DNA from: an uncultured Ignavibacteriales bacterium | GTDB taxonomy: Bacteria; Zixibacteria; MSB-5A5; GN15; JAAZOE01 | Assembly: GCA_964523575.1 (NCBI GenBank) | Contig: CAZGAV010000011.1 | Coordinates: forward strand, 2,294 to 66,293 | DNA: 64,000 bases | Direction: 5' to 3' | Part shown: positions 1,943-27,726 of the stretch, piece after piece | How positions within the stretch are numbered: position 1 is the stretch's first letter | Layout of the letters: each line of letters starts with the position of its first letter | Translations under genes and position numbers: made by a program | The notes under the pieces: generated by a model | The model's database searches: none | Told to the model about the DNA's origin: nothing | Seen by the model: only the letters and a program-made list of their open reading frames with translations

Positions 1943-1973
1943 TTAGTTATCATTGATAATAATATTGATTCTG

Positions 1974-2011
1974 AGGAGGTCGTGTCGGCACAGCGAACGG
2001 CCTCCTTTTTT
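1974..2011 (+). terminator. Rho-independent terminator after the FG-GAP gene
   Basis: Stem GGAGGTCG (1974-1981) pairs with CGGCCTCC (1997-2004), with a 15-nt loop, followed by T7 (2005-2011). Confidence 0.6.
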
Positions 2012-2054
2012 TCGCAGGATCGATAGGTTCGAGGGTTCGGGCGTATTCGAGAAT

Positions 2055-2678: not shown

Positions 2679-2689
2679 AATATCACATC

Positions 2690-4588: not shown

Positions 4589-4819
4589 GCCGTCGTTCCC
4601 TCGTAATCGTCATGAATGTTTTCAATATATACGCCCCCGACAAAATAGCATGAAAAAAATTATCCCCCGTTCGGGATTAATATCGTCCGCTGTCGGGGGA
4701 ATTGTGTCCCGCCGCTGATGCCGGATGCAGTCAAGGCTCCTCGGGCGGGAGAGCGCAATGGATATTCACGAACTACTTTCACAAGCGAGTATGCCGCCTG
4801 GTCTGCGACCGAAAAATTC

Positions 4820-5251: not shown

Positions 5252-5331
5252 ATCCGTCCCTCTCTATCATTATATAAATTATTTACGAATCCCCATCCAC
5301 CGCCCGATAGCAAAATTCCGTTATTCGACTA

Positions 5332-12634: not shown

Positions 12635-12818
12635 GAAGAGCTTGCCGGAGGCGTTTTATTGATGGGGATTGACGGCGCCGGTCTGCCATGATGCGACCCA
12701 ACCGACCCCATGTCGAATGCATTCGAGATTCGCCCAACGACCGAGGCGTTGTCCCGGCTGACTGAATCGATATATAATAATACAGACCGGAATCAAATCC
12801 CGGCCTGAGATCGAAATT

Positions 12819-13235
12819 TCAGTGAACGGTTTCCTGACTGCTTAATTCGTGGCTTTCATGGTGCGCTCCCGACAATGAATGCACTTCCATATCAGGCAGA
12901 AGCGTTTCCCAGGTCCCGAACGGTTCATCCGTGATCGACACGCACGCGTCGGCCATCCAGGTCCTGAAATCTCTCCAGTAATCGGCGCGATCGGTCGCCA
13001 GCACAATTCGAATCTCGGGCCAGACTTTCCGCAAATTCACCAGGGCCTCAAACCAGGCGTCATCCTCGGAACTCAAATGGATGACCGCCACATCGAATGA
13101 CCGCCGCGATAAGTTGTTGACCGTGCTCAGGGTGAAATCGGTTTCGAGATAGACGTCGCTTTCGCCATCCATGAATTTGTGCTCACACTGCTCCAGAAAG
13201 TCCTCATCCCTCGACAATATGATCACCTGTCTCAT
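12819..13235 (-). CDS. Hypothetical receiver-like (pseudo-receiver) protein
   Basis: I prefer the internal ATG, which is preceded by GGGAGG-N8. The track ORF extends to 13349. The layout is receiver-like (VIILSRDED, VAVIHLSSED, RIVLAT), but His sits where the phospho-acceptor Asp is expected. Confidence 0.5.
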   Translation of the reverse strand: MRQVIILSRDEDFLEQCEHKFMDGESDVYLETDFTLSTVNNLSRRSFDVAVIHLSSEDDAWFEALVNLRKVWPEIRIVLATDRADYWRDFRTWMADACVSITDEPFGTWETLLPDMEVHSLSGAHHESHELSSQETVH

Positions 13236-13367
13236 TTCGTTCGCCTCCCATCCGTACCCGGCCGGCGCCGGGCCTTCAGAAAATTTATCCCGGGGCGGAT
13301 CATCCTCTCCAGCGTCCGCCCCGGATTTATATAAAATCCAAACCGCCAATGATTATGATACTCCCCT

Positions 13368-14078
13368 TCAACTGGCCACATAGTCTTCCTCAGCCAGAGC
13401 GATAACACGGTTGAGATGATTCATGGCATCCCGAACGGAGGCCTCATCCATCACGATCCCGCCCGCGAGTTTCTGCGAGGTATCGAGAAGGTTCTTGATG
13501 AGGACCTTAGATTCGGGGTCCAGAAGGTGTTGCAACCAGATCTGGGCGTATTCGGCGTTTCGAGTTGCCGCCATCAATTGCCGGCCGGCGTTTAAATAAT
13601 CCTTTTTATCGAAATAATCCCGGGCCAGATCCCGATGATAGCGGGATAGGGCCAGTTGGGTGTGAGCCAGAACCTTGTCAAAATCGTCGGGGGCGATTAG
13701 AAATCCTCGCTGAAGACTGTCGGCCATGCCGACCATTTCCCGCGTCGCCGCCTGAAGATCCATTTTGGCTTCACCCTGAGCCAGGTCCGTCTCCTCGATC
13801 ATTATCTCGACGGCTTTCTGGACGCCGCCTATGGCCGAAACCGTATCATCAGCCCGGTAGGCCTCATGGGCCCGAACCGCGTGGGTCCAGGGATCGAGTT
13901 CATCGTAAACCCACAGGTCTTCGCCGATTATGCTATCGGTGGGCACGACAGTGGTGTCGCTTTCGGCGATGGCCGAAGCCGCCCCGGCCTCATTCTTGGG
14001 CTGGCTGTGACTGCAGGACAGAACCAGCATCGGCGGGGCGATCAGGAAGATAGCCGGGATCAGGAATTTCTTTAACAT
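13368..14078 (-). CDS. Hypothetical lipoprotein
   Basis: Signal peptide with lipobox LVLSC. The remainder is helical and acidic. Downstream of htrA on the same strand. Confidence 0.65.
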   Translation of the reverse strand: MLKKFLIPAIFLIAPPMLVLSCSHSQPKNEAGAASAIAESDTTVVPTDSIIGEDLWVYDELDPWTHAVRAHEAYRADDTVSAIGGVQKAVEIMIEETDLAQGEAKMDLQAATREMVGMADSLQRGFLIAPDDFDKVLAHTQLALSRYHRDLARDYFDKKDYLNAGRQLMAATRNAEYAQIWLQHLLDPESKVLIKNLLDTSQKLAGGIVMDEASVRDAMNHLNRVIALAEEDYVAS

Positions 14079-14146
14079 TTCTTTTGTCTCCTCTATGACG
14101 AAACCTTTAGACCGTGACGTCTTTGCTATCCCTCAGGGTTTGACCG

Positions 14147-15628
14147 TTACGGCTGAAAGGCCAGAAACAGGCTGTGTCCGTTGCGATAAACGCGAAGCAG
14201 AATCGTGTCACCCTTCTTCATCATGGAAATTTCATTGGTAAATCCATCCACCGAGTCGATTTTTCTTCTGTTGACGGCGGTGATGACGTCGCCTTCGCGC
14301 AAACCGGCGGCGTAGGCGTTACTGCCCTGATCGATATCGGTGACCGCTACGCCCTGGGTATCGTCGGCGAGACCATAATACTTCCGAATGTCGGGAGTTA
14401 TGTCCTTGACCGCGAATCCGAGACCTTCCATCATACTGTTCGGGTTGGCGGCGATCAACTGGTTATCCGAAGCCTCGGCCAGCTTGACCTTGATGTCTTC
14501 CTGCTTGCCATTGCGCATGATACTGAGATCGACGACAGTGCCGGGGCTCGTGGATGCGACCCGGTTGCGTAAATCGGAGGAATTGTTGATATCGAAACCG
14601 TCCATTTTCTGGATGATGTCGCCCGCCTGCACGCCGGCTTTATCGGCCGGGCCATCATGGACGACTTCGCTGACCAGGGCGCCGTTGGTTTTCTTAATAC
14701 CCATGGCGTTCGCGATCGATTCGTTGATATCCTGAATTGCCACGCCCAGCCAGCCGCGGACGACCTTACCCTGCTTGATCAGGGAATTCATGACATGAGT
14801 CGCCATATTGACCGGGATGGCGAAGCCCAGGCCCTGCGAACCGCCGCTCTGACTGACAATCGCGGTATTGATACCGATCAGCCGGCCGTCCATATTCACC
14901 AGCGGACCGCCGGAATTACCGGGGTTGATGGCCGCATCGGTTTGAATAAAATCTTCGTAATCGGCCAGGCCGACATTGGATCGGCCGGTGGCGCTGATGA
15001 TGCCCTGGGTAACGGTATAAGCCAGATTTTCACTCATGGGACTGCCGATGGCCAGAACCAGTTCGCCGACGTTCAGGCTGTCGCTGTTGCCCATGGATAT
15101 GCTGGGATAATCGTCGCCGTCTATTTTAAGCACGGCAATGTCGGTTTTGGTGTCGGCGCCGACTACTTTGACGGGATGCTTGTTGCCGTCGAAAGTCCGA
15201 ACATAAATACTGTCGGCGCCGTCAATCACATGAGCGTTGGTCAATATATATCCATCACTGCTGGTAATAACTCCGCTCCCCAGCCCGTATTGATGAAATT
15301 GGCGTTGCTGCGGCTGTTGCTGTTGACCGCCATGCGGATTTTGAAAAAAGTCAAAAATTGACCCGAAATCGTAGGCGTTGGCGGGCATAGTCAATGTTTT
15401 TTCCGTGGAAACCGTGACAACGGTTGGTTTGATAGCCGCTGCAATATCTATCAGGGCCTGATTGAAATCATGCAAATTGGCGATAGGTCTGTTTTCAGCC
15501 GGGACCACGTGCGTGGGGCGGGCCACTGCGGCCAACTCAATGACAAGAAAGAGACTCAGAGCGACTCCGATACCTAAAACCAAATATCTTATGCGGTGCG
15601 AATTGCCGGAATTTTTTTTCGTCTTCAT
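14147..15628 (-). CDS. htrA: HtrA/DegP-family periplasmic serine endoprotease with two PDZ domains
   Basis: Catalytic motifs TNAHV and GNSGGPL, an N-terminal membrane anchor, and two PDZ-like segments. 493 aa. Confidence 0.95.
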   Translation of the reverse strand: MKTKKNSGNSHRIRYLVLGIGVALSLFLVIELAAVARPTHVVPAENRPIANLHDFNQALIDIAAAIKPTVVTVSTEKTLTMPANAYDFGSIFDFFQNPHGGQQQQPQQRQFHQYGLGSGVITSSDGYILTNAHVIDGADSIYVRTFDGNKHPVKVVGADTKTDIAVLKIDGDDYPSISMGNSDSLNVGELVLAIGSPMSENLAYTVTQGIISATGRSNVGLADYEDFIQTDAAINPGNSGGPLVNMDGRLIGINTAIVSQSGGSQGLGFAIPVNMATHVMNSLIKQGKVVRGWLGVAIQDINESIANAMGIKKTNGALVSEVVHDGPADKAGVQAGDIIQKMDGFDINNSSDLRNRVASTSPGTVVDLSIMRNGKQEDIKVKLAEASDNQLIAANPNSMMEGLGFAVKDITPDIRKYYGLADDTQGVAVTDIDQGSNAYAAGLREGDVITAVNRRKIDSVDGFTNEISMMKKGDTILLRVYRNGHSLFLAFQP

Positions 15629-15733
15629 GACCTATTTCCCCATTTATGAGCGACGGCGTCCGGCTGAGTGAGCGAATCACCACACCGTTCGCCCGACTCA
15701 ACCGTTGTCGCTGTCGCAGTTTTCCCTTACCCT

Positions 15734-15749
15734 TGCAATGTCCGTGCCA
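15734..15749 (-). promoter_or_regulatory. Sigma-54 (-24/-12) promoter upstream of htrA
   Basis: The minus strand reads TGGCACGGACATTGCA, an exact match to TGGCACG-N4-TTGCW. It lies about 105 nt upstream of the htrA start codon, in a 239-nt intergenic gap. Confidence 0.7.
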
Positions 15750-15867
15750 AGATTGAATCGCATGATAATCAACCACTTATGAGATGCGTCTCGGTGGCAT
15801 TTCGCCTCAACGGGGCATCTTGCCACACCCGATGTAAACGATTGAATGAAGATCAAAAAGGGAAGTT

Positions 15868-17190
15868 TTAGGCTTCGGTATCGCGAGGCCGGATAGTATG
15901 CGAGACTCGAATTTCCCGCCGGGTAATAAGCCGGTAGAGGCCTTCAATCAGGAACGAGAGTGCGATCATGGCCACCAGCACCCAGATGCGGACCGGCTGT
16001 GTCGTCATTGTATGCCAGATAAGAGCCGCCAGGGCCAGACCGCAGGCGAGTGCACCGGCGATCGAGATCCAGGGGCGGCTCCCGGTCTGGCGATGAAGAT
16101 GAAAGTTGGCCAGATTGACGGCCGCAAAAATTATCAGGAATCCGGCGCTTCCCATCATCGAAATACTCGACAGGTCGAACACATTGGCTACTATAAGGGT
16201 AATGCCGGCCGTTATTAACAAACCTTCGGCCGGGCGATTCCAGACTTTTTTCTCGAGGATGGGCGGCAGTTCCCCATCACGGGCGATGGTATAGCTGAGG
16301 CGCGCCGCGCCATACAGAGTGGCATTGATAGCCGAAGCCGTCGAAAGCAGAGCGGCAACGGCGATAAGAATAAAACCAAATTCGCCCATAAAAGGCCGGG
16401 CCGCTTCGGCCAGGGCGTAATCCTGAGCCTTGACGATCTGAGGGACGGACAGATTGCCTACCGCCACCCCGGCGACCAAAACATAGAGAATGATGACAAA
16501 AATGACGGCCGAGAAATAGGCTTTGGGCAAAGTCCGCTTCGGTCGCTCGACGTCATGCGCTGTGTTGGCGATCAATTCAAACCCTTCATAAGCCAGAAAA
16601 ATAATCATCCCCCCGGCGACCAGGTTCAAAGGCGGTGACCAGGCGGCGGGCGCCAGACGGCCCCATTCGATCGTCACGAAGCCCAGACCGGCAAAGAGCA
16701 GGAGAATCGACAGCTTGACCGCGACGATCAGGAGTTCGGCGCGGCCGATGGCCTGCGTATTGAGCATATTTAATCCGGTAATGGCGACGATACTGAAACT
16801 GATCAGCAGATGACGAAAAAGAGGTTGCAGATGAGCCGGAAACAGGGCCGCACCATAACTTCCGAAGGCGAAAGAATACAGGGACAACATGACGATGTAA
16901 GAAAGCCAGAGGAGAATATTGAGTCCGCCGGTGAACAACCCGGCCCCGAAGGCTCGATCAAGAAAGGTGACTGTCCCTCCCTGACTGGGGAAGGCGATGG
17001 ACATTTTGGTGTAGGAGTATGCGGTCAGAAGAGCCACCAGTCCGGCCACCAGAAAAGCGACTGGAGAACCTCCGCGGGCGACCAGAACCGCCATCCCGAG
17101 AACCGCGAAAATTCCCCCGCCAACCATGCCGCCGACACCGATGGCTGCTGTCTCCCAGTAACCCAGTTTTTTTCCGGCGGCATTCTTCAT
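15868..17190 (-). CDS. APC-superfamily amino acid/polyamine permease
   Basis: 440 aa with about 12 TM segments. N-terminal Gly-rich motif AIGVGGMVGGGIFAVLG. Confidence 0.9.
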   Translation of the reverse strand: MKNAAGKKLGYWETAAIGVGGMVGGGIFAVLGMAVLVARGGSPVAFLVAGLVALLTAYSYTKMSIAFPSQGGTVTFLDRAFGAGLFTGGLNILLWLSYIVMLSLYSFAFGSYGAALFPAHLQPLFRHLLISFSIVAITGLNMLNTQAIGRAELLIVAVKLSILLLFAGLGFVTIEWGRLAPAAWSPPLNLVAGGMIIFLAYEGFELIANTAHDVERPKRTLPKAYFSAVIFVIILYVLVAGVAVGNLSVPQIVKAQDYALAEAARPFMGEFGFILIAVAALLSTASAINATLYGAARLSYTIARDGELPPILEKKVWNRPAEGLLITAGITLIVANVFDLSSISMMGSAGFLIIFAAVNLANFHLHRQTGSRPWISIAGALACGLALAALIWHTMTTQPVRIWVLVAMIALSFLIEGLYRLITRREIRVSHTIRPRDTEA

Positions 17191-17251
17191 CTAAGTCTGT
17201 ATCCCTTTACTGGACCGGGGACGTCGTGCGATCTCGCAGACCGGTCATTAG

Positions 17252-18097
17252 TTAGCCCGCTTTGCGTCTTACGTTCATTTCCGCCGCTTCAAGATATTTC
17301 TTTATCTTGCCTTCCGCAATGTCGAAAAGAAGTGTCAGATCAGTCTTGAGACCGGCGGATGGGGCGTCATCATGGTTGTCGCTGGTTATCACGAAGACTT
17401 TTCCCGGCAGCGTCAGTATCAGGCGTGAATAATAGAGCTCGGATCCGTCGGTCGTAATATGGTTCTCGATTATCACCCGGCAGAAGATGATCTTCTGGTT
17501 GAGCCGGGTAAGCTTCTCGGCCTCTTTGAATATATGTTCTTCGATATACATCAATCGCGGACTGTTGCGGAAAATAACATCGAGCGGAAAACCATGTCTC
17601 TGGGAAATAACCTTGGCTGTAGCCTTTTTCGCGGCTTTGGCAGAGACGTTGCTTTCCAGAATCTGGGCCACGATTTCCTGAAAGACATCGAGATCGAACG
17701 GTTTGTCCAGCATCGCCGCCACTCCCAGACTTTCCGCCTCGGCATGGGTTTTGGCGTCGCCGAAAGCGGTTATGAGCATTATGGGCGGGAAACCGCTGTT
17801 ATCATGGACAAAATCAAGTATCTCCATTCCGGTAAAACCGGGCATACGAATATCGGAAACAATAAGATCGAAACTTGCCGATTGCTCTTCATCAGTAAAA
17901 GACCCGAAGTGCTGTAATAATTCCACGCCGTTGGTGCATTCTTCGACTCGATATCCTTCTTTCGCCAGGACACGAATCAATAGCGATCTCATTTCATCAT
18001 CATCCTCAGCCAGAAGAATGGCGTATGGCTTTTCTTTTCTGCTCCGGCGCGCGGCCGAGCCATAATCGCGATTCTGCTGAGATTTCGAAGTGGCCAT
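17252..18097 (-). CDS. Response-regulator receiver fused to an HPF/RaiA-like (ribosome hibernation factor fold) domain
   Basis: REC motifs: LLAEDDDE, LIVSDIRMPGFTGME, LITAFGD, LDKP. The C-terminal ~110 aa follow the HPF/YfiA beta-alpha-beta-beta-beta-alpha pattern (LDVIFRN..IEEHIFKEAEKLTRL..IIFCRVIIEN..YYSRLILTLPGKVFVITSDN..LLFDIAEGKIKKYLE). Confidence 0.75.
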   Translation of the reverse strand: MATSKSQQNRDYGSAARRSRKEKPYAILLAEDDDEMRSLLIRVLAKEGYRVEECTNGVELLQHFGSFTDEEQSASFDLIVSDIRMPGFTGMEILDFVHDNSGFPPIMLITAFGDAKTHAEAESLGVAAMLDKPFDLDVFQEIVAQILESNVSAKAAKKATAKVISQRHGFPLDVIFRNSPRLMYIEEHIFKEAEKLTRLNQKIIFCRVIIENHITTDGSELYYSRLILTLPGKVFVITSDNHDDAPSAGLKTDLTLLFDIAEGKIKKYLEAAEMNVRRKAG

Positions 18098-18152
18098 GAC
18101 CTTTCTCCTCTAAGCAAGTGGTGGATGATTATTATTTTCTGATCATGATAAA

Positions 18153-18168
18153 AGCAAATAATGTGCCC
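18153..18168 (-). promoter_or_regulatory. Sigma-54 (-24/-12) promoter upstream of the REC-HPF gene
   Basis: The minus strand reads GGGCACATTATTTGCT with correct GG-N10-GC spacing. It lies about 55 nt upstream of the start codon at 18097. Confidence 0.65.
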
Positions 18169-18316
18169 GTATAAATCAATTGCCGCACAACGACTTAAAT
18201 GCAGACGGAATGTGTTATTCTTCCCCATTGGGGCGAATTGCCTCAAATGACGGGCAACAAAACCAATCTACGATAAATGCAGGAGATAGCCGAAATGCCG
18301 AGAAATCACCCGGCTT

Positions 18317-19687
18317 TCATGAAGCCGGTTTATCTTCGTCGTATTGTTGTAATTTCCGATAGAGGGTTTTGCGGTCGAGGCCGAGGATTCGTGAAGCCAG
18401 AGAACGATTGCCGCCAACGGTATCGAGAACATGGAGAATATAGCGGCGTTCGATCTCTTCCAGAGGAATCAGGTCGGCCGGATTTTCACTGTCGAAAGCC
18501 ATCCGCGAGCCGCGAAAATCATGCACTTTTTCGGGCAAATCTTCAGACGCGATATTATCATAAAGAGTCAGGGCCACGGCCCGTTCGATGGCATTTCGCA
18601 ATTCCCGGACATTTCCCGGCCAGGGATAATCGATCAGTTTCTGGGCGGCCGGTTGTGATATACCGACCACTTTTTTGCCCATCCGCTTGGCGAATTGACG
18701 GACGAAACGTCCGGCGATGAGCAGGATATCGTTGCCGCGGGCCCGCAGGGGCGGGACATCGAGCCGGATGACATTGATGCGGTAATAAAGATCTTCTCTG
18801 AAACGGCCTTCGGTTATGGCCGTTTCGAGGTCCTGATTCGTGGCCGTCAGAAGTCGCACATTGAAATCTGTTTCCGTTTTGCCGCCCACCGGTCGAATAC
18901 GGCGTTCCTCCAAGGCCCGCAACAGCTTGGGTTGCAGGGTCAGGGGAAAATCGCCGATTTCATCGAGCAGGAGCGTTCCCCCTTCGGCTTGTTGAAACAA
19001 ACCCTGGCGATCTTCCCGGGCATCGGTGAAGGCGCCGCGCTTGTGCCCGAATAATTCGCTTTCGAGCAGGTTTTCGGGGAGAGCCGAGCAGTTGATGGCG
19101 ACGAAAGGCTTGTTTTGGCGGCGGCTACGGTTATGCAGAGCCCGCGCCATCAATTCCTTGCCGGTGCCGCTTTCGCCTATGATCAGGACCGAGGTTTCGG
19201 TGTCGGCGATGCGGCTCAACTGCGAAAACAAGTTTATCATCGGTTTGCTTTCGCCGATAATTTCGTCAAACTGCTGTGATTCCTCAAGAGCCTCGCTGAG
19301 AAGATGGACCTTCTGCTGGAGTTCCCGGTGCCGTACGGCCCGTTCGATGGAGAGCGAAAGCAGATCGAGATCGATCGGTTTGGTGACAAAATCATAAGCC
19401 CCGGCCCGAATCGCCGCGATGGCCGAATCCATACTGCCGAAAGCGGTGATGACTATGACGGGAATATCGGGCCGATTGGCGTTGATCCTTTTGCATAATT
19501 CAATGCCGTCGATACCGGGCAGATTTAAATCGGTCAGAACGACGTCGATATCGTCATCCTTCATGCCGGCCAGAGCCTGATGCGGATCGGTGAAGGTGGC
19601 CGGCGTGAAACCCCGGCGGCGAAAATCGCTTTCCAGCAGTTTGCACATCTCATGGTCGTCATCGACGATTATTATTTTTCCGCTCAT
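18317..19687 (-). CDS. Sigma-54-dependent NtrC-family response regulator (REC + AAA+ + Fis-type HTH)
   Basis: REC: IIVDDDHE, VLTDLNLPGIDG. AAA+: Walker A GESGTGKE, sigma-54 contact loop GAFTDA (a GAFTGA variant), LLLDEIGD. The C-terminal HTH is GGNRSLASRILGLDRKTLYRKL. Confidence 0.95.
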   Translation of the reverse strand: MSGKIIIVDDDHEMCKLLESDFRRRGFTPATFTDPHQALAGMKDDDIDVVLTDLNLPGIDGIELCKRINANRPDIPVIVITAFGSMDSAIAAIRAGAYDFVTKPIDLDLLSLSIERAVRHRELQQKVHLLSEALEESQQFDEIIGESKPMINLFSQLSRIADTETSVLIIGESGTGKELMARALHNRSRRQNKPFVAINCSALPENLLESELFGHKRGAFTDAREDRQGLFQQAEGGTLLLDEIGDFPLTLQPKLLRALEERRIRPVGGKTETDFNVRLLTATNQDLETAITEGRFREDLYYRINVIRLDVPPLRARGNDILLIAGRFVRQFAKRMGKKVVGISQPAAQKLIDYPWPGNVRELRNAIERAVALTLYDNIASEDLPEKVHDFRGSRMAFDSENPADLIPLEEIERRYILHVLDTVGGNRSLASRILGLDRKTLYRKLQQYDEDKPAS

Positions 19688-21162
19688 CCTCTCTCCTCGG
19701 CCGGCAGGTAAATCGTAAATCGAGTGCCTTTACCCACCGTGCTTTCGACGGCAATCCATCCCTTGTGTTCCTCGATTATTCCGTAGGCGATTGACAGTCC
19801 CAGCCCGGTCCCCTGTCCGACATCCTTGGTCGAAAAGAAGGGATCGAAAATGAGGTTCAGATTTTCGGGAGCTATGCCCTCGCCCTGATCGGTAATATCG
19901 ATGGCCAGATAATCGCGCTCGGCGGCATCGGCGTGGGCCAGATTTTTGCGGCGATCGGGATACAATTTTATCTCAACGGTTCCGCCCCGGGGCATGGCCT
20001 GGATGGCGTTCATGACGAAATTCATCAGAACCTGCTGAATCTGCGATTGATCGACCGATACTCCCGGAGATTCGCCCTCTTCCACCAATTTCAATGTGAC
20101 CCTGGCCTTACCGGCCATCGGCCGCAGAAGATCCAGAACCTGACTGCACAACTGGCGCATGATCGTTGACATCCGGTGCGTCTGCCGCCGTCGCGCGAAA
20201 TCGAGCAATTGCCGGATAATCCTGATAATCCTCTCAGTCTGCTCGACAATGATGCGCGAATAGTCGCCGATCTCCTCCGAATCCAGTTTCTCGGTGCTCA
20301 ACAGCTTGGCCCGACCGGTAATAACATTCAAGGGAGTACCCAGTTCATGAGCGACGCCGGAGGCCAGCCGGCCGACCGTGGCCAGGCGCTCGGTGTGCCG
20401 CAATTGCTCCATGGTCGACAGCCGTTTTTCGACTTCGGCCCGCAGTTTCTCGCGGGAAAGCTGCAGCTGGGCGCACATCTGATTTAAAGCCCCGGCCAGC
20501 TGCGATAATTCGTGGTGGCCGGAAAGTGTCAGGTCGCAAGAGAAGTTTCCCTGCCCGATCCGCCGGGTTTTTTCCACCAGTTGTTTCAACGGCTGGCCGA
20601 CATATCGGTTACCGAGAATCCATAAAAAACCCAGACCCAAGAGGATCAGGACGACCGACAGAATGACGACCCGGATGGCCGTTTCCCTGGTATAATGCCG
20701 CAGACTGCCCATCGGTTCTTCCAGTTCAATGGCGCCCAGCTTCATATCTTTTGCATTGACCGGGACATAGGTGCGCATGAACTGGCGACCGTACTCATCG
20801 ACATAATGCAACGAAGTATCCCGGCCCTGTTCCACGGGGAGAAGATATTCGGGCCGGACATCGGGCGGCAAAGTCGGTTCGCTCACGCTGCTGGGATAAA
20901 TCCAGCGAATGCGGATACTGTTTTCGGCGCGGTTGATTTCATGAATTCGCCGCAACGCCCGTTCGGGATTATTCTGGAACATCGCCTCGGATACCATGCC
21001 TCCGGCCAATTGACCCAGCTGGACGGCTGTGGATTGCATATTATTGTGGAAAAGATCTATTTCGCGCCGCACCGATAAATAACCGTCGATGACGATCGTA
21101 AGCAGAATAATCGGAAATAATACAATCAGTAATTTTAGCGTCAGTCGCATAGGCCTGTCCAA
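19684..21162 (-). CDS. Membrane sensor histidine kinase (periplasmic domain + HAMP + HisKA + HATPase)
   Basis: Two TM segments flank a ~150-aa loop, followed by a HAMP-like linker. H-box SGVAHELGTPLNVI; DQGEGI and GTGLGLSIA boxes. There is a 4-nt overlap with the activator gene. Confidence 0.9.
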   Translation of the reverse strand: MDRPMRLTLKLLIVLFPIILLTIVIDGYLSVRREIDLFHNNMQSTAVQLGQLAGGMVSEAMFQNNPERALRRIHEINRAENSIRIRWIYPSSVSEPTLPPDVRPEYLLPVEQGRDTSLHYVDEYGRQFMRTYVPVNAKDMKLGAIELEEPMGSLRHYTRETAIRVVILSVVLILLGLGFLWILGNRYVGQPLKQLVEKTRRIGQGNFSCDLTLSGHHELSQLAGALNQMCAQLQLSREKLRAEVEKRLSTMEQLRHTERLATVGRLASGVAHELGTPLNVITGRAKLLSTEKLDSEEIGDYSRIIVEQTERIIRIIRQLLDFARRRQTHRMSTIMRQLCSQVLDLLRPMAGKARVTLKLVEEGESPGVSVDQSQIQQVLMNFVMNAIQAMPRGGTVEIKLYPDRRKNLAHADAAERDYLAIDITDQGEGIAPENLNLIFDPFFSTKDVGQGTGLGLSIAYGIIEEHKGWIAVESTVGKGTRFTIYLPAEERG

Positions 21163-21212
21163 TTTATCCTAATAGAATACTCAATATTGCGGCGGAAAAC
21201 TCCAAAGTCAAG

Positions 21213-23735
21213 TTAATGCGCACGCTTCGCCTGCCTGATTGCGCGTTCGCGGCGCTTCTGGTGCATGTGTTTGAGCAGGCCCGGTTCCCGCGATCCGAAA
21301 ATCTTAAAGGCCAGTAACTTGGAACCATCTTCGATTATAAAACCGGCCAATGCATAAGCCCACACGACTCCGGCCCAGCCCCAGCCGATGGGAGCCATCA
21401 GGAAGCCATACACGGAAATCAGGGTCGCTACCATTTGGGTCAATATAACTGCGGCCAAAAGCGGCGTGCCCGGTCGCGAGGACCAGAAGGGCCGCTCGGT
21501 TCGGGTGACAAAAATTGTCAGATGGCCGGCCACCGAAAGCTTGAGATACATGAAAGTCTGAAGCATATCACGGCTCAAGTTGAAAACCCTCTCACCCAGA
21601 AAGAAAAGGCCGAAAGATTCGATCACGCCAATCACGCCCAGAACAGTGGCAATCGGCAAAAGGATATGCATATCCCAGGCATCGGGACCCAGCGATTCCG
21701 TAACGCGGTCATAGGCAATGGACAGTATCGCGCCGTCGTTGAGCAGGGCCAGAAGAACAATCATAACGGCCGTAACCGGATAAAAATTGAAGGCCAGAAT
21801 CGACAGCGTCATGAACAGCAGGACCCGGATAGTTTCGGCTATTCGATAGGTGGCGTAAGCCTGCATCCTTTTGAATATTTTCCGGCTTTCGTGAATGGCC
21901 GAAATAATAACCGACAGACCCTTGGTCAGGAGAACGATGTCGGAGGCCGAACGGGCCGCATCGGTAGCGTCGGAAACGGCGATGCCGACGTCGGCTTTTT
22001 TCAGCGCCGGAGCGTCGTTGACGCCATCGCCGGTCATACCGACGATATGGTCCCGCTTTTGAAGGGCGGCTACAATATTGTATTTATGCTCGGGGAAAAC
22101 CTGGGCGAAACCATCGGCTTCTTCGATCTGGACCGGGGAAAAATCAAATGTGGCCTGATCCTCGCCGTCGGCGGAAATTTGCAGAATATTGGTGCCCAGG
22201 CCGAGTTGACGGGCTGTCTCTCGGGCGATGGCCTCCTGGTCGCCGGTGATCATTTTCACCGTGACGCCCATTTGCCGCGCCTGTTCAATGGTCGCTTTCG
22301 AATCCTCGCGCGGCGGATCATACAGAGGCAAAATCCCCAGAAACTGCCAACGGCCTTTTTTATCGGTTCGGGCCACGCCCAGCGAGCGATAGCCGCGTTG
22401 AGCGAAAGATTCGATCTCCTGCAGAGTATCTTTTTCGATATCGGCTGAATTTACCGACATTTTCAAAATGACCTGCGGCGCCCCTTTGGACACGCGGAAA
22501 GCCCGGCCGTCTTTTGGTTCAACCGCGGCTTCGGTTTTTTTATGCACCGGATCGAAGGGGATGAATTCGGTGACTTTGTAGTCTTTCAGCAGGTCTTTAT
22601 CTTCCAACCCTTCCACGACGGCGACGTCGATCGGGTCATTATCTTCTTCTCGTGAAGCCAATGCCGCCGCCAGAAAAATATCGCCGGCCGTGACCCCTTT
22701 AACGGTGAACGGTTCGGCGGCTTTTAATGAATTCTGGGTGAGGGTGCCGGTTTTATCGCTGCATAATATATCCACTCCGGCCAGTTCTTCTATTGAGGCC
22801 AGCCGGGAAACGATAGCTTTCTTGGCCGCCAGCAATCTGGCCCCGGCTGCCATAGTGACCGACAAGACCGTCGGCATGGCGATAGGAATCGCCGCCACCA
22901 GAAGCACTAACGCAAACTGCATGGTGGTGGCCAGGCGGTCGCCGCGGAAGATGGAGACGGTGAGGATAATAATAACGAGAAAGACCGCCAGGACAATGAG
23001 ATAGTCGCCGATTTTAAGCACCGCCCGCTGAAGGTGGCTCAGCCCGCCGTCTTCCTTGACCAATTGGGCCGTTTTACCGAAATAGGTCGCATCCCCGATG
23101 GCGCCGACCACAGCCCGGGCTTCGCCGCGCTTGACATTGGAACCGGAATAGACTTTCTCCTTCTTGTGACGCGACACCGGCAATGATTCTCCGGTGAGGG
23201 CCGCCTGATCGACCTGAATTTCGTCGTCGTCAATCAGAACAGCATCGGCCGGTATGATATCGCCGGACCGTAAACGGATCAAATCCCCCGGCACCAGGTC
23301 CCGAACGGGAATAATTTTCCATTCTCCGCCTCTTCTGACCCGAGCTTTGATCGCCAGAGTCTCCTTGAGAGCGGCGATAGTGTTGTCGGCCTGGTATTCC
23401 TCCCAAAAACCGATACAGGCGTTAATCAGGAGCATGGCTACGATAATACCGAAATCGCTCCAATGGCGGACGATAATCGAAAGCACCGCCGCGGCCTCGA
23501 TCATCCACGGAATCGGTCCCCAGAAATAACTCAGGAATTTCAGGATCGGATGCGTTTTATGCTCGACCAGTTCATTATAACCGTACTGCTCGTGCCCTGC
23601 CCTCACTTCGCTGTCGCTCAATCCCGCTTCGTTGAACTGAGGGATAACGGCGGCCTCGGAGTCATTATGGGATCGAGGGGCGTCATTATCCGATTGGGAC
23701 GCCGCCGGATGATCAGTCACTGCCTTTCCACTCAT
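21213..23735 (-). CDS. P-type ATPase, type IIIA (plasma-membrane H+-ATPase-like)
   Basis: P-type motifs TGES, DKTGTLT, MITGDQ and GDGVNDAPALKKADVGIAV. The N-terminus (YGYNELVEHKTHPILKFLSYFWGPIPWMIEAAAV) and the TM6 region (LLALLNDGAILSIAYDRV) resemble plant/fungal proton pumps. Confidence 0.9.
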   Translation of the reverse strand: MSGKAVTDHPAASQSDNDAPRSHNDSEAAVIPQFNEAGLSDSEVRAGHEQYGYNELVEHKTHPILKFLSYFWGPIPWMIEAAAVLSIIVRHWSDFGIIVAMLLINACIGFWEEYQADNTIAALKETLAIKARVRRGGEWKIIPVRDLVPGDLIRLRSGDIIPADAVLIDDDEIQVDQAALTGESLPVSRHKKEKVYSGSNVKRGEARAVVGAIGDATYFGKTAQLVKEDGGLSHLQRAVLKIGDYLIVLAVFLVIIILTVSIFRGDRLATTMQFALVLLVAAIPIAMPTVLSVTMAAGARLLAAKKAIVSRLASIEELAGVDILCSDKTGTLTQNSLKAAEPFTVKGVTAGDIFLAAALASREEDNDPIDVAVVEGLEDKDLLKDYKVTEFIPFDPVHKKTEAAVEPKDGRAFRVSKGAPQVILKMSVNSADIEKDTLQEIESFAQRGYRSLGVARTDKKGRWQFLGILPLYDPPREDSKATIEQARQMGVTVKMITGDQEAIARETARQLGLGTNILQISADGEDQATFDFSPVQIEEADGFAQVFPEHKYNIVAALQKRDHIVGMTGDGVNDAPALKKADVGIAVSDATDAARSASDIVLLTKGLSVIISAIHESRKIFKRMQAYATYRIAETIRVLLFMTLSILAFNFYPVTAVMIVLLALLNDGAILSIAYDRVTESLGPDAWDMHILLPIATVLGVIGVIESFGLFFLGERVFNLSRDMLQTFMYLKLSVAGHLTIFVTRTERPFWSSRPGTPLLAAVILTQMVATLISVYGFLMAPIGWGWAGVVWAYALAGFIIEDGSKLLAFKIFGSREPGLLKHMHQKRRERAIRQAKRAH

Positions 23736-23749
23736 ACTCGTCTCACAAC

Positions 23750-24295
23750 CTATTCTTCAACGGTTTCCGCGGGTACCTTTTTAATGGTTTTCAACGCTTC
23801 CCGCGCCAGAACGGCGACATGCTCCCATGGTCCCAAAGTGCGAATATCGTCCAGAACTTCAAGCACCGGCTGGCGCAAATGACGCTGGCGCTCGAGGTCA
23901 TGGAGTACATGATGAGCGCCGTTGCGCAACGATTCCGATTCCGGTCTTTCAACCAGCCCCCGAAGCAGAGGTTCGATGGCGGCCTTATTCAGGGCTATCA
24001 GGGCCTCGGCGGCCAGCCATTGAATTTCATAATCTTCATCGCTCAGGGCCTCGACGAGGTTATCACCGGTTTCGGGATCCTTGATGGTAATTAGGGCTTT
24101 GGCCGCTTCCCAACGGGCGTCATCGCCACCTTCTTTGAGTATTTTGATCAACCAGGGACTGGCTTCCCGGCCCAATTTTTCAAACTCCATTCGAGCTTCG
24201 TGCCGCACCATCCAATTTCGGTCGCTCAGGTTGTCTGCCAATCTCTTCAGTGTGGCCGGTGTCGGTTTACTTTTATCTTCGGTTTGAGCTGTCAT
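23750..24295 (-). CDS. HEAT-repeat protein
   Basis: Repeated D..W.VR..AA.AL-type HEAT/PBS-lyase repeats (NWMVRHEARMEF, DARWEAAKALI, EIQWLAAEALI). It ends 14 nt upstream of the ATPase gene. Confidence 0.8.
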   Translation of the reverse strand: MTAQTEDKSKPTPATLKRLADNLSDRNWMVRHEARMEFEKLGREASPWLIKILKEGGDDARWEAAKALITIKDPETGDNLVEALSDEDYEIQWLAAEALIALNKAAIEPLLRGLVERPESESLRNGAHHVLHDLERQRHLRQPVLEVLDDIRTLGPWEHVAVLAREALKTIKKVPAETVEE

Positions 24296-24352
24296 CTCTT
24301 CTCCTTTATCGAATCCACCTTATTTTTCTATCCTGTCATCCACATTTAATTT

Positions 24353-24368
24353 AGCAAAGCCCTTGCCA
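24353..24368 (-). promoter_or_regulatory. Sigma-54 (-24/-12) promoter upstream of the HEAT/H+-ATPase/kinase/activator operon
   Basis: The minus strand reads TGGCAAGGGCTTTGCT with correct GG-N10-GC spacing. It lies about 57 nt upstream of the start codon at 24295. Confidence 0.6.
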
Positions 24369-24648
24369 AAGAACACGGAAGTCGTCCGATGGGCCTTATC
24401 GCCATCGAGACAACAGGTTATCCGAATCCGGGAGGTCACAATGACAATTCGCGGCAATCTCGGAATGGGGCATAATGCCACAATGGGTAATGATGCTACA
24501 TCTATTACCCTACTTTCGAAGCCTGCCAGTTTTCAGGAATATGGCCCGCTGACAACTTCGGCTGCGGTAGTCTTTCTCAATATATACGGACTCAAATCGA
24601 GACCCGGCTCGCACGGTCCTGTGCCGGTCACAACGGTTTCGATAGTTC

Positions 24649-24664
24649 CGGCACGAAAATTGCA
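24649..24664 (+). promoter_or_regulatory. Sigma-54 (-24/-12) promoter upstream of the small secreted protein gene
   Basis: The plus strand reads CGGCACGAAAATTGCA. It lies about 37 nt upstream of the ATG at 24702 and is divergent from the promoter at 24353-24368. Confidence 0.65.
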
Positions 24665-24701
24665 TCAGAGAAAAATAAAAATTGTGGAAGGAGCCCACAT
24701 C

Positions 24702-25142
24702 ATGTTAAAGAAAATTGCGATTCTTTTGGGTATGGCGGCCATGATCGCCTGGCCGGGGAGTCATGCCATGGCCCAGCCCAAAACCGAATCCAATGGCGCC
24801 ATGAGCGCTCTAATCGCCTCCACCTCGCCCGATTCTATCCGTAGTCTGGACACGAAAGACGTCATCGACGCTCTGCTGATCGACGGGACCAAAATGGAAG
24901 CTTCTTATGATTCACTGCAGACCAATTTCGAAAGCCTGACAAAAATAAAGGACGATGAGGCTCGCCGGACGGAAACGGCTATTTATAAAACAGAGATGCA
25001 AACCCTGCGGGATAAACTCTCGGAAGAGATGGATGAATTGCGATTCCTGAGATCGATGTCCCAATCGGAAACGGCCGCGTCTGCCGGGGAAGTACGGGCT
25101 CAGCCGGCCAAGGTTACCAAGGGAGACGCCACCGGCCACTGA
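24702..25142 (+). CDS. Small secreted hypothetical protein (146 aa)
   Basis: The internal ATG is preceded by GGAAGGAG and followed by a signal peptide (MLKKIAILLGMAAMIAWPGSHAMAQ). The longer track ORF (from 24363) would run through the sigma-54 promoter. The mature part is helical and charged. Confidence 0.65.
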   Translation: MLKKIAILLGMAAMIAWPGSHAMAQPKTESNGAMSALIASTSPDSIRSLDTKDVIDALLIDGTKMEASYDSLQTNFESLTKIKDDEARRTETAIYKTEMQTLRDKLSEEMDELRFLRSMSQSETAASAGEVRAQPAKVTKGDATGH

Positions 25143-25225
25143 CGGCCGTCATTGGGGATGGAGAAATGAAGAGGGATGTGAAAATTTCAGTTTTATGAGG
25201 TGGATTTCCTTCCTGGGTATGTCAA

Positions 25226-25257
25226 AGGGATGCGACCGGGACGTCGCATCCCTTTTT
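25226..25257. terminator. Bidirectional rho-independent terminator between convergent genes
   Basis: A 10-bp stem GGGATGCGAC / GTCGCATCCC with a 6-nt loop, an A-run on the 5' side and T6 on the 3' side. Confidence 0.7.
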
Positions 25258-25308
25258 TAATATACTCCAATCACTCCCGGATTGCCGGGAGTTTAGTTTT
25301 CAGCGACA

Positions 25309-27726
25309 TCAGGGACAGCAGAATTCCTGAGGTCCCGGACCGGCTTTGAAAACGTAGCCGATCAGGTACACCGCATCGGCGATATTGGTCTCGCCGTCGT
25401 TGTTGGCGTCGCCGGAGCAGAGCGGATCCGGAGCCGGACCGCTCTTGAAGACATAATTGATCAGGAACACCGCGTCGGCCACATTAACGTCGCCGTCGCC
25501 GTTGGCGTCGCCGCAAACGTAATCGCAGACGTCACCGATACCGTTGCTGTTGGCGTCGGCCTGATCCGGGTTGTAAACATCGGGGCAATTATCGCAACCG
25601 TCCGGGAACCCATCAGCGTCAGTATCGACGTTATCGTCGAATCCCGGACAGATGTCACAACCGTCGGGGACGCCGTCGGCATCGGTATCGACATTATCGT
25701 CGAATCCCGGACAGATATCGCATCCGTCGGGTACGCCGTCGGCGTCGGCATCGACGTTATCGTCGAATCCCGGGCATATGTCGCAGGCGTCGCCGACGCC
25801 GTCGCCGTCGACATCTTCCTGGCCGGGATTGGCGACATCGGGACAATTATCGCAAACGTCGCCGATTCCGTCGAAATCGACATCGTCCTGTCCCGGGTTG
25901 TACAGCGCCGGGCAGTTGTCAACGTCATCGCCGATCCCGTCGCCGTCGGAATCGACAATGATTCCGGTGGGGGCAAAATGGATGAAAATACTGGTGTCGG
26001 GATCGTTATAATGTCGATATTCCCAGATTATCTTGGTGCCGTGATCGGAATAAGCGGAGCTATGCACGTCATTGATGACGACATCGTCGGGGACGGTGTT
26101 GACGATGCTCGGCGCTCCCCAGGTGGCCCCGGCATCCTCGGAGATCGTCTGATATAACGTATCGCCGCGCACAAATGAACAGGCGAAAACGTTGCTCGCG
26201 ACATGCGTCACGCGCGGGTGCCGTTCGCTGTCGGTGGTAGCCACGACCGTCGACTGCAGGAGATTTTCCATGTCGGAGCCGCCGGCGTAGAAGCAGATGA
26301 TATCGACGTCATCGGGAGCTCCATCGGTATAGTATTCCATGACAATGACGATGTTGCCGTTGTTGGCCGCGACATCCGGGTAGCGAATATTTTCGCCGGC
26401 ATTGAGGCTGTAGGTGACAGCCCCGCCGATTACGGCGTCTTCCATATCGGCAAAATTATCGCGCCGTAAAAGAAGGAAGCGCTGAGAGACGCCGGCATCG
26501 TAGGGATCATAAACGGTATAGCCATAGTGAGTCACGTGGTCGATGTCGACCGCCGTCGAAAGACACCCGGTAAAACCGTCGATCCAGGTCAGCGACGCAT
26601 AACCGGTAGAGATGGTGGTATCGTATTGATAGAAAAAGAAGGGGCCGTCAATAATATCCTGATAGCTGAGAACATGGGAAATGAGGCCGAAACGGTATTC
26701 ACCAGGGAAATAGGTGAACTCCTGGGAGCTGTCGCAGGCGATATCGGCCATCTTCATACTGTTGACGCCGTATTGCTCCCAGTTCCAGGTACTGAGGCCG
26801 AAAGTCGCCACGGCCATCGGATTATCAATAGTGATCAACTGGGTATTGGCGCCGCTATTCTGGGAGGCCTTGGGGACGAAGGTCGCGTAAAATTCAGTGC
26901 CCCAGCCCCAAAAATCGGCCGCGGGATAAGAATAATCTCCCGTAAACGAGCCGGCGCTGGGGAAGGACATGCCGTCATCGTCCGAACCGGCCCAGATGAC
27001 AGCCGTATCGTTCGTGTTCGACTCGTAAGCCATAAGCAGGGTACCGTTGCCGGCGTCGGCCAGGATGGGATGAATGAAGGCCGAATCCATGACATAGGTA
27101 ATATCCTCGGCCGTGCAATCGAGGACATAATCGCCGGAGGGATTGCTGGAAAAATCGCCGTCAACGACGATATAATAGGTGGAACCGGCATTCATGACGA
27201 CGCCCGTCAAAATTGACCGCAAACCGCATCCGAATCGGATGGCCGCAACCAGCGTATCGGCGTTGGTGCGGTAGACCCAGAGATTGGTCATGTACGACGA
27301 TTCGCAGAGGCTGATATCGACCAACTGGTTGACCGGCGGCGAATAGGAATAGACGACGTCGGGCGAGTGACCGATATTGCCAACGGACGCCTCCTGGTAA
27401 TCATCGGCGTACCCGACGGTCGTCCCGGAATCCAGGTAAGGCATGGAAGTAATCACGGTAGCGGAGGCAATATCCTCGCCGCCCTGCCGGCTTCCGGAAT
27501 TGAGCAGTTGGGAAGGAGTGAGATCGTTGATGGAGATTGTCTCACCTTCGGCCGTCAGCCGCTGGGGCGCCTGCGATACTTTTTCCGCCTGGGGTCGGTT
27601 CAAAACCAATCCCTTGGGATTATTGGGCGAAAACCCCTCGTTCGAAGGAATCGCCCCGATCGCGCCGGCTATCAAGGCTATCAAAAAGGTGAGAGCCAGT
27701 CCCGCTGTCAGACATTGACGTTTCAT
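25309..27726 (-). CDS. Secreted BNR/Asp-box protein with thrombospondin type-3 repeats and C-terminal dockerin-like module
   Basis: Signal peptide. Asp-box SEDAGATW. A run of D-x-D-x-DG-x-x-D-x-C-D-x-CP repeats (DSDGDGIGDDVDNCP...). The last 69 aa are GDANGDGDVNVADAVFLINYVF / GDANNDGETNIADAVYLIGYVF ending in CCP. Confidence 0.85.
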   Translation of the reverse strand: MKRQCLTAGLALTFLIALIAGAIGAIPSNEGFSPNNPKGLVLNRPQAEKVSQAPQRLTAEGETISINDLTPSQLLNSGSRQGGEDIASATVITSMPYLDSGTTVGYADDYQEASVGNIGHSPDVVYSYSPPVNQLVDISLCESSYMTNLWVYRTNADTLVAAIRFGCGLRSILTGVVMNAGSTYYIVVDGDFSSNPSGDYVLDCTAEDITYVMDSAFIHPILADAGNGTLLMAYESNTNDTAVIWAGSDDDGMSFPSAGSFTGDYSYPAADFWGWGTEFYATFVPKASQNSGANTQLITIDNPMAVATFGLSTWNWEQYGVNSMKMADIACDSSQEFTYFPGEYRFGLISHVLSYQDIIDGPFFFYQYDTTISTGYASLTWIDGFTGCLSTAVDIDHVTHYGYTVYDPYDAGVSQRFLLLRRDNFADMEDAVIGGAVTYSLNAGENIRYPDVAANNGNIVIVMEYYTDGAPDDVDIICFYAGGSDMENLLQSTVVATTDSERHPRVTHVASNVFACSFVRGDTLYQTISEDAGATWGAPSIVNTVPDDVVINDVHSSAYSDHGTKIIWEYRHYNDPDTSIFIHFAPTGIIVDSDGDGIGDDVDNCPALYNPGQDDVDFDGIGDVCDNCPDVANPGQEDVDGDGVGDACDICPGFDDNVDADADGVPDGCDICPGFDDNVDTDADGVPDGCDICPGFDDNVDTDADGFPDGCDNCPDVYNPDQADANSNGIGDVCDYVCGDANGDGDVNVADAVFLINYVFKSGPAPDPLCSGDANNDGETNIADAVYLIGYVFKAGPGPQEFCCP
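25624..25812 (-). repeat. Three tandem 63-bp coding repeats (TSP3-like unit DICPGFDDNVDxDADGxPDGC)
   Basis: Units are 25624-25686, 25687-25749 and 25750-25812. Units 1 and 2 differ at 7 of 63 positions. Unit 3 matches for its first ~27 nt and then diverges. Confidence 0.85.

Follow-up and report, generated by a model that had tools for sequence, protein, structure and literature searches.

Among the described sigma-54 (RpoN)-dependent systems, ZraPSR of E. coli and Salmonella, an envelope stress system in which zraP is transcribed divergently from zraSR, is the closest in architecture to the locus considered here. This locus lies in a stretch of 64,000 nucleotides from contig CAZGAV010000011.1 of an uncultured Ignavibacteriales bacterium (the window, that is, the whole stretch that was analysed, whose numbering is used throughout) and, judging from its sequence, very probably constitutes a sigma-54 regulon driven by one two-component system. 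As in ZraPSR, a membrane-bound HAMP-type kinase and an activator with receiver (REC), AAA+ and helix-turn-helix (HTH) domains are encoded in one operon, and a small periplasmic helical protein is divergently transcribed from it, with a 146-aa gene sitting where zraP does. Both systems present sigma-54 promoters on the two units, one enhancer region between them and a theme of envelope protection. Nevertheless, the two are not orthologous, as the scores with the ZraR and ZraS models fall well short of the respective cutoffs, and the regulon in the window is larger (including a H+-ATPase, HtrA, a permease and a fusion of a receiver to an HPF-like domain, REC-HPF) and carries another enhancer motif. 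In contrast to ZraPSR, no evidence of metal sensing was found in the window protein. A ZraP/Spy-like identity of the 146-aa protein was considered and dropped, in view of the lack of a family match and an uninformative long-helix model.

With regard to enhancer logic, the closest system is NtrBC with its target promoter glnAp2, the textbook tandem-site enhancer. In both cases a -24/-12 promoter is preceded, at about 80-150 bp, by two adjacent dyad-symmetric sites that would each take up an activator dimer, and by analogy the two would share activator oligomerisation on tandem sites and the logic of an autoregulated operon. Unlike NtrBC, the kinase of the window is membrane-bound and has a periplasmic domain, no nitrogen genes accompany it, the recognition sequence is different, and the enhancer lies closer to the promoter (centres near -78/-96) and comes with an IHF-like site. 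GlrKR (also known as QseEF), which activates rpoE and glmY, is likewise a sigma-54 two-component system that feeds envelope-stress functions, and the likeness is extended by a related system in a Pirellulaceae locus, which lies upstream of an ECF sigma gene and a site-2 protease gene. The binding motif of GlrR is different, however, and an Rfam scan of positions 12000-26000 found neither a glmY-type small RNA nor any other known RNA family. The activator of the window scores 452.7 against a cutoff of 714 with the NCBIfam equivalog model for AtoC, 421.4 against 558.6 for NtrC, 404.3 against 760 for ZraR and 395.7 against 763 for GlrR, while the best models for the kinase are AtoS and ZraS (the latter with 166 against 479). 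Membership of a named orthogroup therefore fails.

A fourth point of comparison is the HPF/RaiA/YfiA family (PF02482, 'sigma-54 modulation protein'), as the C-terminal half of a 281-aa protein of the locus appears to match the N-terminal domain, which binds the ribosome, of an HPF of solved structure. In contrast to these proteins, that of the window also carries a phospho-accepting receiver as a fusion partner, and its gene has a sigma-54 promoter and is not downstream of rpoN. Altogether, the locus is an uncharacterised example of a well-known regulatory class: its logic (two-component system, enhancer, sigma-54) is textbook, and what is unusual is its cargo, namely a P-type proton pump and REC-HPF. 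The combination of targets, the motif and REC-HPF fusions were not found described in the literature, that on the Desulfovibrio sigma-54 regulome included, the coverage of which was incomplete and thus gives no proof of novelty.

Putative promoters, shared enhancer and activator

An earlier note on this DNA had proposed four sigma-54 promoters around a single kinase/activator pair, and its four 16-mers, with their strands and their distances to the start codons, were all recovered. P1 (TGGCACGGACATTGCA; 15734-15749, minus strand, read from 15749 to 15734) is a perfect consensus of 18.9 bits and lies 106 nt from the start codon of htrA, with transcription predicted to start at about 15723. P2 (GGGCACATTATTTGCT; 18153-18168, minus strand, read from 18168 to 18153; 14.0 bits) is found 56 nt from the REC-HPF gene and P3 (TGGCAAGGGCTTTGCT; 24353-24368, minus strand, read from 24368 to 24353; 16.5 bits) 58 nt from the gene for a HEAT-repeat protein, their predicted starts being at about 18142 and 24342, respectively. 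On the plus strand, P4 (CGGCACGAAAATTGCA; 24649-24664; 16.1 bits) precedes the 146-aa gene by 38 nt and would start transcription at about 24675. In each of them, exactly 10 nt separate the GG from the GC of TGGCAC-N5-TTGCW, the spacing to which the note had drawn attention.

Scoring of the entire window, which the note had suggested as a check, was carried out with a sigma-54 position weight matrix on both strands, and P1 to P4 hold the four top scores of the 64 kb. Four matches reach 14 bits or more, as compared with 0.77 expected from 500 dinucleotide-preserving shuffles, of which 0.4% contain as many; at 16 bits or more, three are observed against 0.14 expected, a number that none of the 500 shuffles attains. 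An independent count of window sequences with at most one mismatch to TGGCACGNNNNTTGCW gave 3 matches, with 0.45 expected. Furthermore, all four elements are intergenic, co-oriented with the gene that follows and 20-250 nt upstream of its start, a class that accounts for 3.9% of the (position, strand) pairs of the window, so that the probability of finding all four there by chance is about 2e-6. Other sigma-54-like matches, at 17638 (plus strand), 19134 (minus) and 42541 (minus), are not accompanied by an enhancer and fall within or at the edge of coding sequence, and were set aside as chance or unrelated. The last of these, TGGCAGAAACAGTGCA at 42541-42556 on the minus strand, is the seventh-best match of the window (12.7 bits) and coincides with the annotated start of a 138-aa open reading frame (ORF) near an MgtC/DUF4010 gene (43277-44614), with no tandem palindrome close by; it may belong to the regulon of another activator or be a chance match.

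Upstream of each promoter there is a pair of 15-bp palindromes, G(G/T)GGCA-N3-TGCC(A/C)C, spaced 18 bp from centre to centre. The pair of P1 spans 15794-15826, with GTGGCATTTCGCCTC and GGGGCATCTTGCCAC at 15794 and 15812; that of P2 spans 18212-18244, with TGTTATTCTTCCCCA and GGGGCGAATTGCCTC at 18212 and 18230; and the divergent promoters P3 and P4 have a common pair at 24467-24499, made up of GGGGCATAATGCCAC and GGGTAATGATGCTAC at 24467 and 24485. The exact 16-mer GGGGCAnnnTGCCACA occurs just twice in the window, both times upstream of these promoters, and a copy with two mismatches is found upstream of P2; every one of these copies has a partner at a spacing of 18 bp. Measured from the -24 GG, the centres of the two palindromes are 54/72 bp away for P1, 52/70 for P2, 108/126 for P3 and 158/176 for P4. 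The P2 geometry is the same in three homologous loci (L111, L108 and L109), and spacings of 52/70 or 54/72 bp recur at six promoters of five organisms, which can be aligned without gaps from the palindromes through the -12 element. Between the P1 enhancer and P1, at 15767-15779, lies an IHF-consensus site, AATCAACCACTTA, the sole exact match to WATCAANNNNTTR in the entire window. An exact IHF consensus between the enhancer and the -24 element is also present in L109, at the same offset and on the same strand as at P1, and in L111, on the opposite strand and at another offset.

In 1.27 Mb of DNA, comprising the window and all the loci fetched up to that scan, a tandem pair with one strong site was found only at loci with orthologues of the kinase and activator, apart from one weak match in the window, at 50615/50632, which has 4+1 mismatches and no promoter nearby and was rejected as chance. 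An outward-facing sigma-54 promoter is located 52-186 bp from every such pair, in the window and in L026, L111, L037, L113, L108, L109, L110, L002 and L003. The motif was not found at the loci of paralogous activators (L013, L014, L061 and L106), even though three of these (L013, L014 and L061) carry good sigma-54 sites, and no tandem enhancer was present in the control loci with permease homologues from a metagenome scan. We infer from these patterns that the activator binds to the tandem palindromes, a recognition motif newly derived here, and the promoter cassette of fixed geometry appears to be conserved across phyla.

The activator gene lies at 18317-19687 on the minus strand, and, as the earlier note had it, no second sigma-54 activator was found in the window. 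Its product combines a receiver, an AAA+ domain (with GESGTGKE and GAFTDA) and a Fis-type HTH, with Pfam matches to PF00072, PF00158 (Sigma54_activat, 235 bits), PF25601 and PF02954, and belongs to a family with 7,583 relatives at E<=1e-100. Orthologues with 57-73% identity have the same type of loop, either GAFTDA or GSFTNA, in which D or N is kept. GAFTDA, with D in place of the fifth-position G, is the loop that occurs naturally in FlgR, a functional activator, and N is given as a putatively functional variant (PMC3162934); by analogy, the GAFTDA loop of the window is compatible with activity. The membrane sensor histidine kinase (19684-21150, minus strand) has a periplasmic domain, HAMP, HisKA and HATPase_c according to Pfam, with no PAS-domain match, and its stop codon overlaps the activator start by 4 nt. 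A Foldseek search with a model of the periplasmic domain gave no match at E<=0.001; the weak matches were nearly all to Cache/PDC sensor domains, a tentative resemblance.

Conservation in relatives and alternative readings

Conservation of the elements in relatives, which the earlier note had suggested as a test, was observed, P3 and P4 being found in L026 and analogues of P2, P3 and P4 in L111. In L026, the closest relative, in which the secreted 146-aa protein is 75% identical, the conserved islands in an otherwise diverged spacer are P3 (with a substitution in the promoter spacer only), a 40-bp block over both palindromes that is fully conserved, P4 with its GG and GC, and the 5' untranslated region (5'UTR) with the ribosome-binding site. 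Three further blocks of the P3-P4 spacer are also conserved in L026: GCCATCGAGACAAC (24401-24414), CCTCAATATA (about 24575-24584) and TCGCAYGRTCCTGTG (about 24608-24622). They coincide with none of the promoters or palindromes and may be bound by a bending protein or by a second regulator. Ahead of the 146-aa gene, the 5'UTR (24675-24701, GAAAAATAAAAATTGTGGAAGGAGCCCAC) is 100% identical in L026 and can fold into a small hairpin (TGTGG...CCACA), the loop of which contains the ribosome-binding site AAGGAG.

The gene order of the window is also that of L111, where a divergent gene for a secreted protein faces the string HEAT, ATPase, kinase, activator and REC-HPF (the last 55% identical), with promoters of 16.6, 18.0 and 15.2 bits at the positions of P4, P3 and P2, respectively, and tandem palindromes. 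The positional counterpart of the 146-aa protein in L111 (2641-3198, minus strand) is methionine-rich, with runs such as PGMMGRMTGSKPAMGNKMSSGMMSG, a composition that recalls proteins of the periplasm that bind Cu/Ag or buffer oxidation; no such methionine richness is seen in the window protein. In L036/L037 the same genes are reordered, the kinase and activator coming first, followed by an enhancer and promoter with the HEAT and ATPase genes, and a divergent enhancer and promoter stands ahead of REC-HPF and the permease. The pairing of HEAT with ATPase is kept in L037 and L111, and the order of REC-HPF followed by the permease in L037 and in the contig of P0004. In L113/L114, the kinase and activator genes are followed by an enhancer, a promoter and REC-HPF directly before HtrA, which explains why P1 has no direct orthologue, as htrA follows REC-HPF there. 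Analogues of P2 ahead of REC or REC-HPF genes are thus found in L111, L113, L109 and L037, and promoter analogues of the REC and HEAT genes in L037, L113, L108 and L109.

More distant orthologues (L108, L109, L110 and L002/L003), with activators 57-67% and kinases about 40% identical, all have a tandem palindrome and an outward sigma-54 promoter, with cargo that varies. In L108, from a metagenome-assembled genome (MAG), the promoter is followed by a 589/628-aa protein and a stand-alone receiver; in L109, from KSB1, by a stand-alone receiver and an outer-membrane beta-barrel. In the Pirellulaceae locus L110 there is a divergent site-2 protease, and an ECF sigma factor and a second sigma-70-family factor lie downstream; in L002/L003, from Desulfobacterium, the cargo is an ion-translocating hydrogenase-type complex, NuoL/H/K/M with NuoCD/NuoB-like proteins. 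At 11650-13997 of L110, the enhancer and sigma-54 promoter precede the ECF-type sigma gene and a 516-aa sigma-70-family gene, an arrangement that would be a cascade from sigma-54 to the sigma-70 family. L108 additionally contains six tandem paralogues of about 190-196 aa (1932-5721, minus strand), with no Pfam match, upstream of and divergent from the kinase/activator operon. The search of GTDB genomes with the kinase as query had its closest relatives at 40% identity, in Desulfobacterium MAGs, which are usable for the enhancer and not for footprinting. In the metagenome scan, with the permease as query, 80 loci were obtained, of which only L036/L037 contain the system, the short contig L027 being from the window organism itself.

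Several points weigh against the reading of P1 to P4 as one regulon. The weight matrix is our own approximation of the published consensus and is not curated, and the consensus is not enriched in the window when up to two mismatches are allowed (7 matches against 8.5 expected); the signal therefore resides in the quality of the matches and their placement. P2 is the weakest element, at 14.0 bits and with 2+3 mismatches in its enhancer, and a coding-region match near it reaches 13.9 bits. Among the relatives, the promoters of L037 score 7.8-9.9 bits, and the -12 element of L113 reads TTGA in place of TTGC. No ORF with an RpoN box was found in the 64-kb window, the single-sequence model of the periplasmic domain of the kinase is of low confidence (pLDDT 58.6), and a single physiological theme is an interpretation, because the cargo differs between lineages.

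One alternative is that the four elements are chance look-alikes in intergenic DNA that is richer in AT, with the genes using sigma-70 promoters and the palindromes being terminators or structural repeats. Besides the lack of enrichment at two mismatches, the region contains more sigma-70-like matches than expected (20, as compared with 9.8), and two of the enhancer pairs lie just downstream of stop codons, those of the permease and the activator, where terminators would sit. Yet the four elements are the top-ranking matches and are correctly placed, they are kept in relatives while the spacers diverge, and the geometry of enhancer and promoter is fixed across phyla. Moreover, a terminator would not be expected at the site of the P3/P4 enhancer, which is flanked by divergent genes, and the palindromes have no T-run and were not picked by terminator calling, all of which makes chance an extremely improbable explanation. 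Somewhat less remote, though improbable too, is that the promoters are real and that some or all of them are served by activators encoded elsewhere, the palindromes being bound by another regulator such as a repressor, so that the locus would not be one self-contained regulon. The visible genome is limited to 64 kb, binding of the palindromes by the activator is deduced from sequence, P4 could have an unseen site of its own at its distance of 158-176 bp from the enhancer, and the conserved spacer blocks GCCATCGAGACAAC, CCTCAATATA and TCGCAYGRTCCTGTG would be compatible with such a regulator. However, in several phyla the tandem palindrome goes together with the orthologous activator, it is missing beside paralogous ones, and the window has no second activator. 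The Fis-type HTH dimers of NtrC-family proteins recognise dyad-symmetric, tandem sites, and the palindromes fit them in size, symmetry and layout.

It could also be argued that the system is simply the orthologue of a named one, with the same job: ZraSR/ZraP in metal and envelope stress, NtrBC, AtoSC or GlrKR. The best NCBIfam models are indeed AtoC, NtrC, ZraR and GlrR for the activator and AtoS and ZraS for the kinase, the layout resembles that of zraP and zraSR in having a divergent, sigma-54-dependent periplasmic helical protein that shares one enhancer with the kinase/activator operon, and in L110 an ECF sigma gene comes after the pair, which recalls the activation of rpoE by GlrR. Nonetheless, all the equivalog scores are far below the cutoffs, the secreted protein has no match to the ZraP/CpxP/Spy family, and genes for nitrogen assimilation or acetoacetate are missing. 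NtrB is a soluble PAS-domain kinase, whereas the kinase of the window is located in the membrane, has a periplasmic sensor domain and gave no PAS match. NtrC recognises TGCACC-N5-GGTGCA and GlrR TGTC-N10-GACA, sites from which the enhancer motif differs. Orthology with any of these systems thus seems very unlikely. The reading in which P1 to P4 are real sigma-54 promoters under the control of the NtrC-type activator of the locus is supported by the quality, placement and conservation of these sequences and by the co-occurrence of the tandem palindromes with orthologues of the kinase/activator pair in several phyla.

Predicted transcription units and cargo

The P3 unit is predicted to comprise the HEAT, H+-ATPase, kinase and activator genes, all on the minus strand. 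Its first gene (23750-24295) encodes a HEAT-repeat protein of 181 aa (Pfam HEAT_2, E 5.9e-25), and is followed by that of an 840-aa P-type IIIA ATPase (21213-23735), which scores 1042.1 bits with TIGR01647 (cutoff 615.5) over model positions 1-755 and for which proton efflux is predicted. A perfect hairpin, CCGGCTTCATGAAAGCCGG, at 18310-18328, overlaps the stop codon of the activator; it has no clear T-run and may be a weak terminator or an RNA-stability element that separates the P3 unit from P2. The P2 unit, also on the minus strand, would consist of REC-HPF (17252-18097) and an APC-family amino-acid permease (15868-17190; Pfam AA_permease_2, E 1.9e-34).

P1 is likewise thought to drive a minus-strand unit of three genes. 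The first encodes a periplasmic serine protease of the HtrA/DegP family (14147-15628), with 492.1 bits for TIGR02037 (cutoff 416.2) and the Trypsin_2 and twice PDZ_2 domains of the 'Do' family. With it is probably co-transcribed the gene of a 236-aa helical lipoprotein (13368-14078), in whose translation a lipobox (...LVLSC) can be read and which has no Pfam match. The last gene (12819-13235) encodes a small REC-like protein, tentatively assigned from its translation as a degenerate receiver, which is 20% identical to the REC-HPF receiver (alignment A4) and gave no Pfam receiver match; a strong terminator (12783-12807, minus strand, read from 12807 to 12783) ends the unit. The annotations of HtrA and of the P3A H+-ATPase given in the earlier note hold, both being above the cutoff, and the same is true of the assignments as HEAT protein, HAMP kinase and activator, the last with a GAFTDA loop. 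Its description of the locus as self-contained stands within the 64-kb window, which has no second activator; the units are probably larger than it had proposed, with the permease, the lipoprotein and the REC-like gene as further members.

The divergent P4 unit would contain the gene of the 146-aa protein (24702-25142, plus strand) and end at an intrinsic terminator with a 13-pair stem and a T-run (25224-25255, plus strand). This protein is mostly helical and appears to be secreted, with a signal peptide that can be read from the translation. It is a near-orphan, with one relative in searches of 5.8e9 sequences and 1.84e9 representatives, no Pfam match at E<=0.001 (noise alone at E<=10), and no NCBIfam or PDB match. 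It is distantly similar to the divergent 185-aa methionine-rich protein of L111, and its AlphaFold model, a single long helix (pLDDT 67, pTM 0.28), is uninformative.

The fusion of a receiver with an HPF-like domain is the most unusual component of the locus. Pfam recognises REC in its receiver half, while its C-terminal half matches the PDB chain 9t0z_9 of HPF with an E-value of 4.3e-8 (phmmer), and a profile of the family matches the same chain with 2.3e-15. Against PF02482, the window protein itself gave no Pfam match, even at E<=10, whereas 15 of 40 relatives match this family (best 1.5e-10). The C-terminal half is thus likely to be homologous to HPF on the basis of these comparisons, which sustain the label that the earlier note had given to the protein. 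REC-HPF proteins (17252-18097 in the window, P0132-P0198 among the relatives) form a family of about 100 members of about 275 aa. The homologues take three forms, namely REC-HPF of about 275 aa, stand-alone receivers of about 157 aa, and a receiver joined to HATPase_c_2, like an anti-sigma-factor kinase (P0203). The receiver of the window protein is 53% identical to the stand-alone receiver of L109 and 49% identical to that of L108, and some receiver homologues are on contigs equal in length to those of listed activator homologues, a hint that the two may be co-located. Since a receiver with varying fusions recurs beside the system, the second receiver would be its most conserved target, with an output domain that depends on the lineage. 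A hibernation factor controlled by phosphorylation was not found in the literature covered.

Some neighbouring genes were also noted. Cytidylate_kin2-family proteins lie a few kb from the kinase and activator in three organisms (8140-9399, minus strand, in the window; 1-1223 in L111; 4879-5700 in L113), the domain being fused in the window to a BON-like stretch and a receiver. Just past the terminator of the 146-aa gene, an 805-aa protein (25309-27726, minus strand) with thrombospondin type-3 repeats and a dockerin has no visible relation to the regulon. Homologues of the permease (62-67%) and of the P-type H+-ATPase (49-69%) are a few kb apart in L040, L044, L045, L068, L071 and L081, unrelated metagenome contigs with neither kinase/activator nor enhancer; this adjacency may point to a connection in function between permease and ATPase.

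Proposed mechanism and biological meaning

In the proposed mechanism, the membrane kinase would sense a periplasmic or membrane cue and phosphorylate the NtrC-type activator, whose dimers would occupy the tandem 15-bp palindromes and assemble into an ATPase ring. Via DNA looping, this ring would remodel and open the complexes of the sigma-54 holoenzyme at P1 to P4, with an IHF-type bend aiding the looping at the close-spaced promoters. P3 would generate positive feedback on the kinase and activator if transcription reads through; autoregulation of the operon is plausible and depends on read-through across the 62-bp gap between the ATPase and kinase genes. This gap contains the sigma-70-like matches TTGACT-17-AATATT and TGGACA-18-TAAAAT, which could supply basal kinase and activator. 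No clear sigma-54 promoter was found ahead of the kinase-activator operon in L037, L113 and L110, which weighs on autoregulation.

The role of the regulon may be a response to envelope or ion-motive-force (pH) stress, an assignment that we consider tentative, with at best about an even chance of being correct. It is based on the cargo of the window, that is, a proton pump, HtrA, a lipoprotein, a secreted protein, a permease and an HPF-like protein, and on that of the relatives, with a site-2 protease, an ECF sigma factor, an outer-membrane protein and an ion-translocating complex. Such a response would export protons, degrade damaged periplasmic proteins, exchange amino acids and damp translation, the latter via the HPF-like protein under the control of phosphorylation. 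The receiver of REC-HPF would be a conserved auxiliary partner and may double as a phosphate sink. A stress role of this kind is consistent with the proposal that sigma-54 governs the bacterial exterior, a proposal into which the target set fits (PMC3162934).

For the uncultured sediment bacteria to which it belongs, the locus offers a testable circuit in which sensor, activator, DNA motif, promoter class and targets are all defined. The enhancer motif and its fixed spacing are usable to predict the regulon in thousands of MAGs with the same activator family. In addition, the target set is unusual in bringing a bacterial P-type proton pump, periplasmic proteolysis and REC-HPF together under sigma-54, and it suggests that signals from the envelope may pass directly to the shutdown of translation. 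A broader and more doubtful possibility is that the pair represents a widespread cross-phylum sigma-54 module, present in KSB1, Planctomycetota, Desulfobacterales and MAG lineages, with a hard-wired cassette of palindromes, IHF site and promoter and a receiver target whose output can be swapped (none, HPF-like or like an anti-sigma-factor kinase), hibernation being controlled by phosphorylation as one arm of the stress response. If this were true, ribosome hibernation would be directly controlled by phosphorylation in the window organism, alongside the induction of a P-type proton pump and HtrA.

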